NCBI GenBank assembly: GCA_041658885.1
Contig: JBAZZJ010000002.1
Span: 14,649 to 78,648 of the forward strand
DNA from: Minisyncoccota bacterium
Lineage (GTDB): Bacteria; Patescibacteriota; Minisyncoccia; Phycocordibacterales; 21-14-all-36-13
Direction of reading: 5' to 3'
Length of the DNA stretch: 64,000 nt
Part shown: positions 59,407 through 63,165 of the stretch, in pieces
How positions within the stretch are numbered: the stretch's first letter is position 1
How the letters are laid out: every line of letters starts with the position of its first letter
Program-made: the position numbers and the translations under genes
Notes under the pieces: model-generated
Seen by the model: only the letters and a program-made list of their open reading frames with translations
The model's database searches: none
What the model was told of the DNA's origin: nothing

Positions 59407-60303
59407 ATGAATATTAATTACAAAAAATTATCAATCGTGGCTTTATTCCTAACTATTTTACCACTCGTTTCTTGGGCTTTTGTTGTGCCTGAAAAACCAT
59501 CCAGTTTTGTTTCTGATTACGCTGGTATGTTGAAGCCGGACGAAAAAACAATTTTGGAAAATAAACTTTCGGAACTTGAAAAACAAACAACAAATGAAAT
59601 TGGAGTTGTAATAATAAAATCATTGGGCGGAGATACAATAGAAAATGTTGCGCAAGAAATTTTTACTCAATGGGGGATTGGAAAGAAAGAAAAAAATAAC
59701 GGAGTTCTTCTTTTGATTTCTCTTGATGACAGACAAACCCGTATACACACAGGCTATGGGGTTGAACCTTATCTTACAGATATAGGAACTTCTTATATTC
59801 AAAGTGATGTTATTACGCCGGCGTTCAAACAAGGAAATTATTTTGGTGGGATAGATGGGGCTGTTGATAAAATGATTGAAGCACTTGGTGGCCAACAAAT
59901 AATTCCTGAAGGATATTCTGAAAATTCTGACGGACCAAAACTCAATTTTAATTTTATTTTTTTTATACTGATAATTTCTCAATGGATTATAGCTGTTCTT
60001 GCTAGGTCAAAATCGTGGTGGGCAGGAGGAATTTTCGGGGGGGCTGTTGGCCTCGTAATCACATTCTTTTTTGTTGGTCTTACTTTGATTGCAATACCAA
60101 TAATTCTTTTCTTCACTGGGTTTGGATTGTTTCTGGATTTTATAGTTTCCCGCGCATACGAAAAATTTAAAAGGGGTGGAGGAACTCCTCCGTGGTTTTT
60201 AGGTGGCGGAGGATTTGGAGGAGGAAGTGGACACGGAGGCGGTGGCTTCAGTGGTTTTGGTGGAGGAATGTCTGGAGGAGGTGGGTCAAGCGGAAGGTGG
60301 TAG
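59407..60303 (+). CDS. TPM-domain (YgcG-like) membrane protein with a Gly-rich tail
   Basis: FVSDYAGMLKPDEKTILENKLSELEKQTTNEIGVVII, WGIGKKEKNNGVLLLISLDDRQTRIHTGYG, then TM helices and a GGGGFGGGSGHGGGG tail. Confidence 0.85.
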   Translation: MNINYKKLSIVALFLTILPLVSWAFVVPEKPSSFVSDYAGMLKPDEKTILENKLSELEKQTTNEIGVVIIKSLGGDTIENVAQEIFTQWGIGKKEKNNGVLLLISLDDRQTRIHTGYGVEPYLTDIGTSYIQSDVITPAFKQGNYFGGIDGAVDKMIEALGGQQIIPEGYSENSDGPKLNFNFIFFILIISQWIIAVLARSKSWWAGGIFGGAVGLVITFFFVGLTLIAIPIILFFTGFGLFLDFIVSRAYEKFKRGGGTPPWFLGGGGFGGGSGHGGGGFSGFGGGMSGGGGSSGRW

Positions 60304-60365
60304 ATTTCAATCTTAAAGCTCAAATCTCAAATCTAAAATCTGTAGAAAATTGAAATATTAAATAT

Positions 60366-60451
60366 GGAGAGGTGGCAGAGTGGTCCCCAGTATCATCAGC
60401 CTTTGACTGAGCTACCTGCCTACCGTAGGCAGGCGGAGCAGGCTAATGCAC
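60366..60451 (+). pseudogene. tRNA-Ser 5' fragment split by a 58-nt insertion
   Basis: GGAGAGGTGGCAGAGTGGT (60366-60384) and CTAATGCAC (60443-60451) are identical to nt 1-28 of the intact tRNA-Ser. The downstream sequence cannot form anticodon or T arms or a matching acceptor strand. Confidence 0.6.
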
Positions 60452-60515
60452 AAGATTGTTCCCAATTTGTTCAAGAGCGTAGCGATTGAATACAAATCGC
60501 AATCCCCCATATGGC

Positions 60516-60605
60516 GGAGAGGTGGCAGAGTGGTCTAATGCACATGCTTGGAGAGCATGAGTTCGGGAAACCGGACCGCAGGTTCAAATCCTGTCCTCTC
60601 CGCCA
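60516..60605 (+). tRNA. tRNA-Ser (anticodon GGA), class II, CCA encoded
   Basis: Acceptor GGAGAGG/CCTCTCC, 3-bp D stem, anticodon stem CATGC/GCATG with loop TTGGAGA, long variable arm GTTCGG-GAAA-CCGGAC, T loop TTCAAAT, G73, CCA. Confidence 0.85.
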
Positions 60606-60611
60606 TGTGGG

Positions 60612-60669
60612 GGAGAGAGCATGGGTCCATTAACGCGGATTGCAGGTTTAAATCCCATACCTTCCGCAA
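60612..60669 (+). pseudogene. degenerate tRNA-Ser 3' half (anticodon loop to 3' end)
   Basis: GAGAGCATGGGTCCATTAACGCGGATTGCAGGTTTAAATCCCATACCTTCCGCA aligns with GAGAGCATGAGTTCGGGAAACCGGACCGCAGGTTCAAATCCTGTCCTCTCCGCC of the intact gene. The T stem no longer pairs. Confidence 0.6.
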
Positions 60670-60683
60670 CGATTTTTTAAAAA

Positions 60684-61703
60684 TTAAAGCACATATCTTT
60701 CGTATTTGTGTTTGCACGGATTAGCCCAAGCGACATCCATCCATTTTTCTTTTGGGTTCATTATTATTGATGCGATTGTAACTCCAAAGTTTGAATGCTT
60801 TTTATTGTCATGACCACATATTCCTGTTCTGTGCTCTTTCAATATTTTTCTTAGTCCGTCCAAATTTTTATTTTTTTCTTTTTCTAAAAATTTTTTCACT
60901 CTTTGATATCTTTCCAAAGATTCTTTTTCTGTGTTTTCTTCATTTTGTTCTTTCTTTATAAGTGGGTGATTAGTATGAATAAGGAAATCTTTACCATAGA
61001 AAAAATTATCATGATTAAAAAAATCTTCTACATCCAAAATTTTTAAATCTTTTGATGCATAGATAGTATTGCTATTTATACTACTCTCAAACAAATCTTC
61101 CCTCACTGCGTCTCTAACTGATTTTGAAGTTAGTATTGCGCGCATCTGAAAATTTTTTGGTATTCCATATCTAAACTTTCCAGAGCCGATTGAATTTCCA
61201 GTAAAACAAAAACCAAAAGAATTTAATCCGCAACTTGAACCCGGTAATGTCCCAATATAATTTAAACTTAGAAAGCTTATATCATTAATTTTACATTTGA
61301 GAACATAAAGACCGTTCGTTCTATATTCTTTCAACCAGTCTTCATTATGTCCTAACAATATTTCTTTTTCATTTTTTATAGCTATGCTTGTGCATTTATT
61401 CATTTTAAACTCCAATAATTCTTCCTCGCAAATTAAAACCATCAATTCTGTAAGTTTTATTTCAGCCCCATCGCTCATACCTTGAGCTTCTTCAACAAGA
61501 ACTGGGAAAAATTTCATTGTTTCTGGCAAAAAATTCAAAGCCGTTCTTTCCAATTCTTTAAAATCAACATCTTTTATTTCACGATATATTTTTTTATTTG
61601 AAGCAAGTCGTTTTCTAATCTGATTTTTCAGAATTTTTCCTATTTGATAACCGAGGTCATAATTATTTTTTGCTTCTATGTTTATAAAGGGAATTTTTTC
61701 CAT
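60684..61703 (-). CDS. peptidase C45 / acyl-CoA:6-aminopenicillanic-acid acyltransferase-like Ntn hydrolase
   Basis: NKCTSIAIKNEKEILLGHNEDW (nucleophile Cys and HNEDW region). Confidence 0.65.
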   Translation of the reverse strand: MEKIPFINIEAKNNYDLGYQIGKILKNQIRKRLASNKKIYREIKDVDFKELERTALNFLPETMKFFPVLVEEAQGMSDGAEIKLTELMVLICEEELLEFKMNKCTSIAIKNEKEILLGHNEDWLKEYRTNGLYVLKCKINDISFLSLNYIGTLPGSSCGLNSFGFCFTGNSIGSGKFRYGIPKNFQMRAILTSKSVRDAVREDLFESSINSNTIYASKDLKILDVEDFFNHDNFFYGKDFLIHTNHPLIKKEQNEENTEKESLERYQRVKKFLEKEKNKNLDGLRKILKEHRTGICGHDNKKHSNFGVTIASIIMNPKEKWMDVAWANPCKHKYERYVL

Positions 61704-61757
61704 ATATTAATTTAATAATTGTAGCATTTTTTAAAATACAAATATTCACACAAATTA

Positions 61758-61785
61758 TTGACAAGTTACATTTTTTTGATAATAT
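61758..61785 (+). promoter_or_regulatory. extended -10 promoter with no annotated gene immediately downstream
   Basis: TTGACA, 16 nt (ending in TGa), TAATAT. Confidence 0.5.
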
Positions 61786-61954
61786 ATAAACACCAATATG
61801 AATATATTAGGTAGAAAATTTAATCATCATAAAGGAAACCTCTAAAAGGGGCCCTTTTGTGTGTTGATTACAATTTTCAATTAAACCCAAAACTGACCTC
61901 TTTTAAGGGGTTTTTTTGTTTTGGGATTTTTTGTTATTTGAAATGGAGGTTTTT

Positions 61955-62023
61955 ATGAAAAGAAAGAATTTCCATCGTTCTTTTGGAGGAACAGGTCCAC
62001 ACATGTTTGGTAATGTTTCTTAA
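61955..62023 (+). CDS. candidate 22-aa peptide MKRKNFHRSFGGTGPHMFGNVS
   Basis: GGAGG lies 5 nt upstream of the ATG. Translated by hand; below the ORF-track cutoff. Confidence 0.3.
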   Translation: MKRKNFHRSFGGTGPHMFGNVS

Positions 62024-62072
62024 ATCGTTGTCATGGTGGGCATAACACATAAAAAATATGCCCACTTTGTAT

Positions 62073-62148
62073 GGTCATCGTAGCTCAATGGAAGAGCGCT
62101 CGTTTGTGAAGCGAGTGGTTGGGGGTTCGAATCCCCTCGGTGACCCCA
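62073..62148 (+). tRNA. tRNA-His (anticodon GTG) with encoded G-1 and CCA
   Basis: G-1 pairs with C73, acceptor GTCATCG/CGGTGAC, D arm TAGCTCAATGG, anticodon loop TTGTGAA, T loop GGTTCGAATCC. Confidence 0.9.
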
Positions 62149-62205
62149 AAAAATAATAAATGCAATGCATAGCATTTTGAAATAATATTTTTTGAAGTAA
62201 TTTTT

Positions 62206-63165
62206 ATGAGTTACAAAAGTAAAAAAAGAAAAAAAACAAGAGCGTCAAAATTACAACGCGACTTTGTGATTTTTCTAAAAAAGTTCTTTGTAAAATTTAG
62301 TAGAAAAATAGAAAAGTTCTTTGAAATAAAAAATAAAAATGAGGAGAATAAAATGAGATTTCCACAAACAAAAATTATTATGGAACAGCTTCGTGAGAAA
62401 GCTAAAAGAATTCGTCCAAACAATTTAAAAATAAATGAATGGATAGATGATTATATTGATAGTTGTATTTTAGAAGGTAAACAAATAGAAATTATTACTC
62501 AATATTGTCTTTCTAAAGATTTAGAATTTCGTTATCAAAAACAAGGCAATAAGTTTGTTCCACTACCAGCAGAAAGGAACATGTTTGAAAAAACGATTCC
62601 AGAAATTATTTCTTTGTTTGAAAAAAATGGTTTGACTCTAAATTGGTATGTAACATTTAACGATTCTTTTTTGGATAGAGGGCGGGTTTCTTCTGACATA
62701 AAAAGTATTTATATGTGCATGATTAAAAATCTTGCTGAAGAAATAAAATCGTTAGAACAATCAATAATCTTTTTAGACTGGGAGCTTGATGTTCTAGGAA
62801 AGCAGTCAGGACCAAATATGGAAGTAACAAATTATTTTGATTCCCTTGTTCCTAAAGAAGCCTTCAATTTAGATATGAAAAATCTTTTGAAAAGGGTTAA
62901 AGAATATAAGGATTTTTCAAAAACAGAGGATGATCTTAAAAGAGAAACAAAATTTAAAATTTCTTGTGAAGCCGAAGAAGGAAGATTTATGTTAAGCCAG
63001 GAATCCCCATTTTCTAATGGGAATTTCATTCTTGTTCCTTTAGAGTTTCCAGAGAGATATGTATTTTTTGAAATTCTTGCTCCAAACTTTCAGAAACGAC
63101 TCGCTTCCATTATAAAACCATATCCTTGGAGAATGGATGCTGATAATTTGAGGTACGAAATGTGA
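62206..63165 (+). CDS. hypothetical protein
   Basis: ORF only. A GAGGAG 8 nt before the internal ATG at 62353 suggests the real start may be there (270 aa). Confidence 0.5.
   Translation: MSYKSKKRKKTRASKLQRDFVIFLKKFFVKFSRKIEKFFEIKNKNEENKMRFPQTKIIMEQLREKAKRIRPNNLKINEWIDDYIDSCILEGKQIEIITQYCLSKDLEFRYQKQGNKFVPLPAERNMFEKTIPEIISLFEKNGLTLNWYVTFNDSFLDRGRVSSDIKSIYMCMIKNLAEEIKSLEQSIIFLDWELDVLGKQSGPNMEVTNYFDSLVPKEAFNLDMKNLLKRVKEYKDFSKTEDDLKRETKFKISCEAEEGRFMLSQESPFSNGNFILVPLEFPERYVFFEILAPNFQKRLASIIKPYPWRMDADNLRYEM

Follow-up and report, generated by a model that had tools for sequence, protein, structure and literature searches.

A single-copy tRNA-Ser(GGA) gene of a Minisyncoccota bacterium nested in the relic of an older gene of its kind, probably as a mobile self-compensating replacement cassette

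Integrases use transfer RNA (tRNA) genes as attachment (att) sites, at which the 3' part of the gene is duplicated and a large integrase-encoding element enters. Miniature inverted-repeat transposable elements (MITEs) and mobile insertion cassettes are non-autonomous inverted-repeat elements that bring cargo with them. In Allomyces mitochondria, as Paquin et al. are said to have described in 1994 and 2000, the 3' end of atp6 has been replaced by a mobile endonuclease open reading frame (ORF) plus a gene fragment, and double-hairpin elements reportedly lie nearby. The tRNA gene cluster of phage T4 carries SegB, a free-standing GIY-YIG homing endonuclease (PMC2330249; also PMC13096335), and the unit spreads among tRNA genes by way of a break in the naive tRNA region, being copied together with flanking tRNA sequence (PMC2330249). 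Intervening sequences that RNase III excises are known from bacterial ribosomal RNA (rRNA) genes, and inserts from the rRNA genes of bacteria of the Candidate Phyla Radiation (CPR) (PMC11270868). Disrupted tRNA genes of archaea carry non-canonical introns or are split or permuted (PMC4090602, PMC3978253), and the repetitive extragenic palindromes (REP/REPIN) that are associated with REP-associated tyrosine transposases (RAYTs) are dispersed short palindromes, some of them with GCGNAGC loops (PMC2817692). Here we analyze a tRNA-Ser(GGA) gene of a Minisyncoccota bacterium that lies inside the remains of a second gene of the same kind; our search of the literature on nested tRNA genes turned up no report of such nesting of cognate tRNA genes in bacteria. 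The locus belongs to a stretch of 64,000 nucleotides (the window), which corresponds to C2:14649-78648 of the genome G000. The assembly of this genome, to whose contigs the C-numbers refer, comprises 674 kb in 27 contigs with 32% G+C and includes a tmRNA gene.

We show that the interval 60366-60668 of the window was once a single tRNA-Ser(GGA) gene, which now carries two inserts (Table 1). The larger insert, the cassette, is a non-coding segment of 156 nt (60459-60614, TTCCC...GGGA) that sits exactly between G34 (60458) and G35 (60615) of this outer gene. It consists, in this order, of a hairpin module, the left arm of a clamp, a complete tRNA gene, and the right arm of the clamp. The complete (inner) gene is the only tRNA-Ser(GGA) gene of the assembly according to ARAGORN and the Rfam tRNA model (RF00005), which were used for all tRNA calls; whether it stood alone had been raised as a point to check in a first-pass annotation made from the letters of the window. 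Removing 60459-60614 restores the anticodon loop TTG-GAGA (here and below, a hyphen within a motif marks the junction), whose G35-A36-G37-A38 occupy 60615-60618, with no base duplicated or lost, and the same is true at the compared loci L005 and L026. The target-site duplication by which MITEs are recognized does not occur at the cassette. The cassette ends, TTCCC...GGGA(G), can pair over 4-5 nt, and the long repeat formed by the clamp is internal on the left side. The interval 60304-60683, between the flanking ORFs 59407-60303 and 60684-61703, contains no ORF of 60 or more amino acids, and each of the flanking ORFs is conserved in a same-genus genome.

Table 1. Features of the tRNA-Ser(GGA) locus and of related loci in the same genome (positions without a contig number refer to the window)
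Feature	Position	Strand	Remarks
Outer gene, positions 1-20	60366..60385	+	20/20 identical to inner gene; directly after AT-rich TATTAAATAT
D-loop insert of outer fragment, 57 nt, two dispersed repeat pieces	60386..60442	.	One piece is the hairpin CCTGCCTACCGTAGGCAGG
Outer gene, positions 20-29	60443..60452	+	CTAATGCACA; 10/10 identical to inner gene
Junction hexamer AGATTG	60453..60458	+	TTG is outer loop positions 32-34 (60456-60458)
Hairpin module (about 45 nt), variable covarying stem	60459..60502	+	Conserved loop CAAGAGCGTAGCGATTG at 60472-60488
Clamp left arm (leader), continues acceptor stem	60503..60515	+	TCCCCCATATGGC
Live tRNA-Ser(GGA), CCA encoded	60516..60605	+	ARAGORN; Rfam RF00005, 60.2 bits
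Clamp right arm (trailer), overlaps discriminator and CCA	60602..60614	+	GCCATGTGGGGGA; cassette end ...GGGA at 60614
Decayed outer relic, G35 to 3' end	60615..60668	+	41/56 identical to inner 3' half
T-run after relic	60673..60678	+	Read from sequence; terminator scan gave no call
RAYT-like Y1/HUH transposase ORF, 222 aa	49424-50092	+	Both flanks carry the hairpin TGTCAAACACC(C)GGTGTTTGACA
Further loci: nested Ile(GAT), Pro(TGG), Ser(TGA), Thr(TGT) (two), or Tyr fragment	C2:13893-14119; C8:9403-9594; C3:58080-58330; C1:40480-40760; C13:5068-5521; C1:87248-87640		
Repeated tRNA 3' ends: Leu(TAA), Ala(TGC), Glu(CTC), Gly(TCC)	C1:78151-78407; C1:115705-115907; C12:110-262; C8:3276-3294		As after serial 3'-end integration

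The 5' part of the outer gene occupies the place where genomes of the same genus start an uninterrupted gene. It is itself interrupted by the second insert, which lies in the D-loop and holds the hairpin CCTGCCTA-CCG-TAGGCAGG; because one C is common to both flanking pieces, its length is 57-58 nt. The first-pass annotation had noticed two perfect repeats of the tRNA separated by a hairpin-bearing insert, which is correct, but the pieces extend over 60366-60385 and 60443-60452 and share that C. Located by blastn, partial copies of the D-loop insert occur in G000 at C4:2256, C3:2900, C3:11236, C13:2927, C10:11079, and C6:21048, about 10 copies are present in the same-genus genome G003, and further copies in another one, G001. 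The insert is a separate dispersed repeat and stands outside the history of the tRNA. A hammerhead-like CUGAUGA on its minus strand was considered and dropped, the order and spacing of the parts being a misfit and Rfam being silent. Within the anticodon stem of the outer gene, AGA (60453-60455) occupies the 5' strand and is unable to pair with GCATG (60619-60623), and the two acceptor halves, 5' GGAGAGG and 3' ACCTTCC, are unpaired as well. Because of the D-loop repeat, the broken anticodon stem, and the unpaired acceptor halves, the outer gene is dead, that is, a pseudogene. In the window, ARAGORN found no tRNA after in-silico removal of the insert; excision was scored at the default threshold because the relaxed threshold gave hundreds of spurious calls. 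Its intron search detected no intron-bearing or split tRNA over the fragments, and none across 60366-60510, in line with the earlier statement that the upstream fragment cannot complete a tRNA. The downstream fragment is, as had been claimed, a diverged copy of the 3' half (41/56 identities), but it starts at 60615 (position 35) rather than at 60612, and it ends at 60668. The last 19 nt of this relic match the resident gene of the same genus at 17/19 positions versus 13/19 for the inner gene, and therefore at least the end of the relic stems from the old resident gene. The old transcription unit may have ended at the T-run behind it.

To place the locus in its lineage, we compared it with three genomes of the same genus (G001-G003) and with a set of 401 genomes of the order; L-numbers denote the compared loci. 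G001 and G003 have an uninterrupted Ser(GGA) gene, GGAGGGT...CCCATACCCTCCGC, which in each adjoins one syntenic neighbour gene, and G002 has an uninterrupted gene too, on the opposite strand and near the same neighbours. This uninterrupted same-genus type (GGAGGGT...GGGTTCAAATCCCATACCCTCCGC) differs in sequence from the inner gene. In G003 a relic, CCTGTCCTCTCCGCA, has been retained beside the shared downstream gene, and it is identical to the 3' end of the live inner gene. Since the relic in G003 equals our inner 3' end and our relic is of their type, each type has displaced the other in one of two sister species, the replacements running in opposite directions. Two displaced Ser 3'-end relics lie about 230 and 600 nt downstream of the Ser(GGA) gene in G003 (L050, G003:C23), one of them being CCTGTCCTCTCCGCA.

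In the order at large, a strict-pattern search detected the composite (outer 5' part, TTG, TTCCC-module-CAAT, stem arm, Ser(GGA), stem arm ...GGGA, GAAA, outer 3' part) in 11 of the 401 genomes, which represent 11 genera, whereas the reversed pattern, used as a control, gave 0. With G293 and G026 added to the strict matches, at least 13 of the 401 genomes contain it. The composite occupies the same junction between G34 and G35 at L002, L005, L012, L023, L026, L028, L029, L032, L033, L035, L176, and L183; the junction reads TTG-TTCCC...GGGA-GA(A/G)A in at least 12 loci, and ATG precedes it in L176. The insertion site is thus fixed within a conserved gene, and the element is absent from close relatives (G001-G003 are empty) and spread patchily over distant ones (11 genera). 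The bases before the junction also recur. NAGATTG-TTCCC is found at L002, L012, L023, L027, L028, L029, and L032, AGGTTG at L035, and CACGCTTG-TTCCC is retained at L005, L026, and L033; counted by lineage, the non-functional flank AGATTG is common to 8 others and AGGTTG occurs in a ninth. The flanks differ between L012 and L029, which belong to one genus. L012 (G026:C83) consists of nested layers of Ser(GGA) genes, and at L029 (G140:C41), which is rearranged, the innermost gene of L012 is broken by a module cassette. The live gene of L029 resembles a chimera of two L012 layers. An outer 5' fragment with a GC-hairpin insert in its D-loop, different each time, is present at our locus and at L026, L029, and L183, and L023 has a GC-hairpin insert in the T-loop of its relic; live inner genes never carry such inserts.

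A composite at a fixed junction, distributed patchily and with an empty site in the genus, favours a history in which an element was inserted. The comparison with relatives, which the first-pass annotation had recommended, identifies the flanks as tRNA relics and the same composite in at least 13 genomes, and of the three histories that it had listed, the insertion of a tRNA-carrying hairpin element into an older tRNA-Ser gene is the one that agrees with the clean G34-G35 junction and the empty same-genus site. Its decayed tandem triplication leaves the conserved module, the covarying stem, and the different allele type of the relic unexplained. The same points bear on a local tandem duplication that decayed, or on an assembly artefact of strain variants, which the identity of the 5' fragment with the inner gene and the 5.7% contamination estimated for the G000 metagenome bin might suggest. 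The order of the parts and the junctions recur in at least 13 independent assemblies, a non-tRNA module and a covarying stem are not products of duplication, and the relic is of another allele type, which makes duplication or artefact extremely unlikely. Excision experiments in silico bear on yet another possibility, namely that an intron or intervening sequence interrupts an outer tRNA that is still made from joined or split halves, the inner tRNA being a passenger. After excision the outer gene is valid at L005 and L026, at the relaxed threshold also at L033, as well as in the Thr(GGT) case of G000 described below; moreover, the insert ends are able to pair (TTCCC/GGGAG), and rRNA is known to contain stem-bounded inserts that RNase III cuts. 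In contrast, the outer gene cannot fold in the window and is dead after excision in 7 of the 10 composite loci tested, the break lies inside the anticodon, so that unjoined halves could not decode, and the insert is only 156 nt long and mostly tRNA. The fold has a continuous helix with the junction bases facing each other, rather than a bulge-helix-bulge with staggered 3-nt bulges. The tRNA-splicing endonuclease EndA (PF01974) was not found in G000, while archaeal controls were detected, and no group I or other intron family matched 59500-62500 in an Rfam scan that admitted E values up to 10. We therefore consider the probability of an intron next to negligible.

The inner gene is enclosed in a helix that goes far beyond its acceptor stem. 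The clamp adds 13 contiguous pairs (one of them T.G) to the 7-bp acceptor stem, and the discriminator and the encoded CCA are buried inside the resulting 20 pairs. A contiguous extension of the acceptor stem that buries the CCA had already been described at first pass and is real, with 20 pairs from 60503-60515 and 60602-60614 instead of the 19 then counted. The RNA fold of 60456-60625 is a cloverleaf plus stem (-82.5 kcal/mol, z = -6.7), and 0 of 200 shuffles folded as well. Leader-trailer pairing of at least 6 contiguous pairs occurs in 4 of the 40 tRNA genes of G000, which are Ser(GGA), Thr(GGT), Ser(TGA), and Pro(TGG). Burial of the CCA is not conserved, as an encoded CCA is lacking in 2 of 9 aligned cassettes and in L002. 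In the alignment of nine cassettes, for which 16 helix pairs were scored, nine of them clamp pairs, the acceptor-plus-clamp helix is 98.6% paired, with changes on both sides in 8 of the 16 pairs and compensatory changes in 6 of the 9 clamp pairs. The covariation score was reached by 0 of 500 shuffles, and controls with slid partners were 33-46% paired. Since the arms vary in sequence yet stay complementary, they represent a selected helix and not a repeat recognized by a protein; the clamp is kept as a structure. In the tRNA-sense strand of the clamp-plus-acceptor helix, G.U cells outnumber A.C cells 7 to 1, with 5 of the 7 in one column, which hints at a helix formed at the RNA level. G000 encodes RNase III (rnc, C1:127352-127741), and with 20 bp that covary, processing of the clamp stem by this enzyme appears plausible from the sequence.

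The hairpin module of the cassette behaves differently from the clamp. Copies with up to 98% identity occur in 42 of the 401 genomes; the same-genus genomes G001-G003 have none. They are scattered in both orientations, and many of them, though not all, adjoin tRNA fragments. This scattering concerns the module by itself, whereas the composite is single-copy in each genome. Its loop, CAAGAGCGWAGCGATTG, is nearly fixed, and its stem covaries (changes on both sides in 5 of 9 pairs), with variants such as CGATTTG:CAAATCG, CTGTTTG:CAAACAG, CAATTTAC:GTAAATTG, and others. A strand test on the module stem in 78 copies gave A.C 10 versus G.U 3. Rfam, scanned across 59500-62500 as above and at the gathering threshold across 12 module-bearing loci, contains no family matching the module, the clamp, or the 57-nt insert, and returned only tRNA plus chance matches. 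Two roles for the module were considered and rejected: as a promoter, because a sigma-70 scan was negative and the module lies in both orientations relative to tRNA genes, and as a tandem interspersed guide RNA (TIGR) or CRISPR-like repeat, because the copies are dispersed instead of arrayed and their variable parts pair with each other. When all species genomes were scanned with the 17-nt loop, at least 120 matches were obtained versus about 140 expected by chance, and therefore only multi-copy, stem-flanked families count. At loci L052-L171, CAAGAGCGWAGCGATTG, whose core is a GCGNAGC mini-hairpin, forms the tip of stems that differ between lineages, within multi-copy repeats of Brevundimonas, Ruminococcus and other Clostridia, Fibrobacter, Rickettsiales, Acidobacteria, and Saccharibacteria, without an Rfam match. 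The occurrence of such stem-flanked multi-copy families in unrelated phyla is not explained by chance.

A hairpin-built element of this kind raises the question of whether the nested replacement was moved not by homing but as single-stranded DNA by an HUH/Y1 transposase, of either the REP-RAYT or the IS200/IS605 palindrome-associated transposable element (PATE) type, with insertion 3' of a short target (TTG) and without duplication. The clean junction after TTG (ATG in L176), the lack of a target duplication, and the fact that dispersed module copies usually follow ...ATG or ...TG fit such a mechanism, as does the module loop, whose GCGNAGC mini-hairpin resembles that of some REPs (PMC2817692). 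Moreover, G000 has five RAYT-like Y1 genes (PF01797 matches, ORFs of 211-228 aa), one of which lies in the window (Table 1). Each of these genes, however, has flanking hairpins of its own (TACGGAGGC..., TGTCAAACACC..., ATACATAGGAG..., and others), none resembling the clamp or the module, for which reason the RAYT genes were rejected as the mover. In addition, G053 carries at least 9 module copies and no Y1 match, no composite is found at a neutral TTG, each being a single copy inside a cognate tRNA gene, and AGATTG, a flank that is not part of the element, seems to be transferred with the element. On balance we consider transposition by HUH/Y1 unlikely, although it keeps some weight.

Nesting is not confined to Ser(GGA). 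At least 7 of the 40 tRNA genes of G000 are nested in cognate relics, the six others being Thr(GGT), Thr(TGT) (two genes), Ser(TGA), Pro(TGG), and Ile(GAT), and a second, cognate gene surrounds each of the four clamped ones. No clamped or nested tRNA gene was seen in neutral intergenic DNA, all of them being in cognate relics. Thr(GGT) (C1:8530-8700) is situated with its clamp, CCCCGCCAGA/TCTGGCGGGG, within the D-loop of a second Thr(GGT); deleting CCCCGCCAGA, the gene, and TCTGGCGGGG restores the outer tRNA-Thr(GGT) (ARAGORN, default threshold). An "empty" hairpin with the same arms, CCCCGCCAGAGGCGGGG, is present at C3:58367. A tight stem is lacking in the nests of both Thr(TGT) genes and of Ile(GAT), the latter at C2:13893-14119, some 600 nt ahead of the window, and Tyr has an upstream 5' fragment. 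Several side observations concern other RNA genes of G000. Most of the 40 tRNA genes end with the discriminator plus CA (e.g. ...GC-ACAA) instead of CCA or an unrelated sequence, and CCA is encoded in only about nine. tRNA-Ser(GCT) was not found in the assembly by ARAGORN or the Rfam tRNA model, and it may be in an assembly gap or disrupted. Just past the window end, at C2:80827-81286, the RNase P RNA was matched as two weak pieces (26 and 17 bits, with a cut-off of 100); this RNA may be very divergent or interrupted.

Leu(TAA) (3 copies, spaced by 120 bp), Ala(TGC) (2), Glu(CTC) (2), and Gly(TCC) each have their own last 17-19 nt repeated next to the gene. Such reiterated 3' ends, together with the series of Ser 3'-end relics downstream of the gene in G003, would agree with the view that the fragments are att-site scars left by integration and excision of larger integrase-bearing elements, as the second history of the first-pass annotation proposed. 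Duplication by an integrase, though, is limited to what lies 3' of the crossover, and integrase scars leave unexplained both the 5' fragment and a break inside the anticodon that contains a whole tRNA. The insert, 156 nt and non-coding, is conserved across families; between the flanking ORFs, each conserved in the genus, no ORF of at least 60 aa exists, and in none of the 13 loci does a large integrase-bearing element lie between the fragments. This makes an origin as att scars very unlikely.

Small GIY-YIG nuclease genes, such as those at C1:87341-87580 and C13:5144-5413 of G000, adjoin some of the tRNA genes. ORFs of this type are located between fragment and live gene at Tyr and at Thr(TGT) on C13, and at L005, L006, L007, and two G000 loci they end within about 10-30 nt of tRNA 5' ends. 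A further one is inserted in the 16S rRNA gene (C2:11380-11730) with a perfect 20-bp inverted repeat, ccagcacttaattttgttta / taaacaaaattaagtgctgg; together with this repeat it resembles an RNase III-type intervening sequence. Other GIY-YIG ORFs are bounded by the inverted repeats CCCCCACTTTC/GAAAGTGGGGG and CCCTGTTAAATAA/TTATTTAACAGGG, and short hairpin elements with the arms of GIY-YIG ORFs but without an ORF are scattered in G000, e.g. CCCTGTTAAAT.... The cassette arms of Thr(TGT) and Ser(TGA) (CCCCGTTAGAAC and CCCCGTTATAA, respectively) resemble one such hairpin family. Because the arms around GIY-YIG ORFs, tRNA cassettes, and empty hairpins are alike, it seems, as judged from their sequences, that they can enclose a nuclease gene or a tRNA or stay empty.

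Altogether, we interpret the locus as a mobile self-compensating tRNA replacement cassette that was inserted in an older cognate gene, and we assign this interpretation a probability of roughly 70%. The break in a single-copy essential tRNA gene would be tolerated since the insert supplies the same tRNA. Spread would occur by homology-dependent replacement, for which the conserved tRNA halves would serve as homology arms, be it through gene conversion akin to homing or through recombination with DNA that has been taken up; this route is suggested because the sites are cognate only, AGATTG seems to travel with the cassette, and loci within one genus differ by exchange of tRNA-like segments. A nuclease acting in trans probably helps, which would turn the spread into a drive, and the small GIY-YIG nucleases are candidates for this role. 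As the inner gene would restore the target, renewed invasions could follow and stack up as nested layers. Transcription of the inner tRNA probably starts at the old promoter and yields a precursor of about 310 nt, because the scan detected no internal promoter-like site and the outer fragment, like the uninterrupted genes of the genus, begins right after an AT-rich, TATA-like stretch. In such a transcript, the 3' acceptor strand could be captured by the upstream fragment, a competition that the covarying stem would prevent by keeping the inner tRNA fold apart from the look-alike fragments. The 20-bp stem would then serve as a substrate for RNase III, after which the ends would be completed by RNase P and 3' trimming.

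Several observations weigh against this interpretation. The outer 5' fragment equals the inner gene, yet the 3' relic is of the other type, so that a simple insertion is insufficient; given these mixed allele types of the outer halves, gene conversion or an earlier nested round must be assumed. The module is dispersed, also far from tRNA genes and in either orientation, so that it may have come along as a hitch-hiker, or by an insertion of its own, without being a working part. No nuclease or transposase gene is present in or beside the cassette in the window and no GIY-YIG match was obtained at the locus, so the endonuclease that a homing element is expected to encode is missing here, and among about 13 composite loci only one, L005, has a GIY-YIG ORF nearby. 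A simple sigma-70 scan found no promoter at the locus, which makes promoter capture a guess. The excess of G.U cells in the clamp helix rests largely on one column and is not phylogenetically independent. Finally, all compared genomes are metagenome bins.

More tentatively, and with somewhat less than even confidence, we propose that the cassette belongs to a class of self-compensating homing elements, so far undescribed, that reside in essential tRNA genes of CPR bacteria and replace the cognate gene in place. In such a class, a structured non-coding unit would land in the anticodon loop or D-loop, borrow the promoter, be released via its stem, and recreate the target, so that tRNA genes would be overwritten repeatedly. 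If this is true, horizontal, drive-like replacement would be a main mode of tRNA gene evolution here, with about 1 in 5 tRNA genes affected, and the cassette would show how selfish DNA can settle in an essential RNA gene present once per genome and leave the host alive, since it brings a working copy of what it destroys. It would also explain the tRNA debris around tRNA genes in these reduced genomes and the conflict between tRNA sequences and species relationships. The clamp would be a natural example of an insulating, covarying stem thanks to which a tRNA can fold and mature within a long, repeat-laden precursor. Gene finders ignore the pseudo-tRNA halves around at least 7 of the 40 genes, and the fragments can be mistaken for split or intron-bearing tRNAs.

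Each of the known systems shares some properties with the locus. As in the disrupted tRNA genes of archaea, loops are interrupted and leader and trailer pair, but here there is no bulge-helix-bulge and no EndA, the outer gene has decayed, and the host is a bacterium, as its tmRNA indicates. The intervening sequences of rRNA likewise place a long stem within the loop of a structured RNA, and G000 encodes rnc and has a 16S insert with a 20-bp repeat; a cut rRNA, however, works in pieces, which a tRNA cut in the anticodon cannot do, and the cassette carries a functional product. Dispersed hairpins and RAYT-like genes recall the REP-RAYT system, but the RAYT genes of this genome are flanked by other hairpins, and no link to the clamp or module was found. 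With MITEs the cassette shares its small size, its non-coding nature, its complementary arms, and a passenger gene, and empty versions exist for the Thr and Ser(TGA) cassettes; it differs from them in being a composite, single-copy unit without target-site duplication, always at the cognate site, with arms that vary in sequence but pair. The att duplications resemble it in that a tRNA gene is the landing site, is restored by sequence borne on the element, and leaves displaced pieces, but at our locus the whole gene lies within the break and relics are found both 5' and 3'. In the SegB system, too, a mobile unit acts at tRNA genes, and small GIY-YIG genes adjoin tRNA genes in the genomes compared here as well; in contrast to that system, the cassette has no endonuclease, is located inside the target gene itself, and carries a whole replacement, the host is bacterial, and cleavage is a candidate step only. 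The atp6 case offers a further likeness, since an insert in an essential gene brings the displaced part and leaves a relic downstream, and GC-rich hairpins are involved. There the gene encodes a protein, only its 3' part is supplied, and an ORF is present, whereas here the gene is a tRNA gene, it is supplied whole, and the insert is non-coding. By analogy with these systems, the cassette would work most like a homing element that carries what it destroys.

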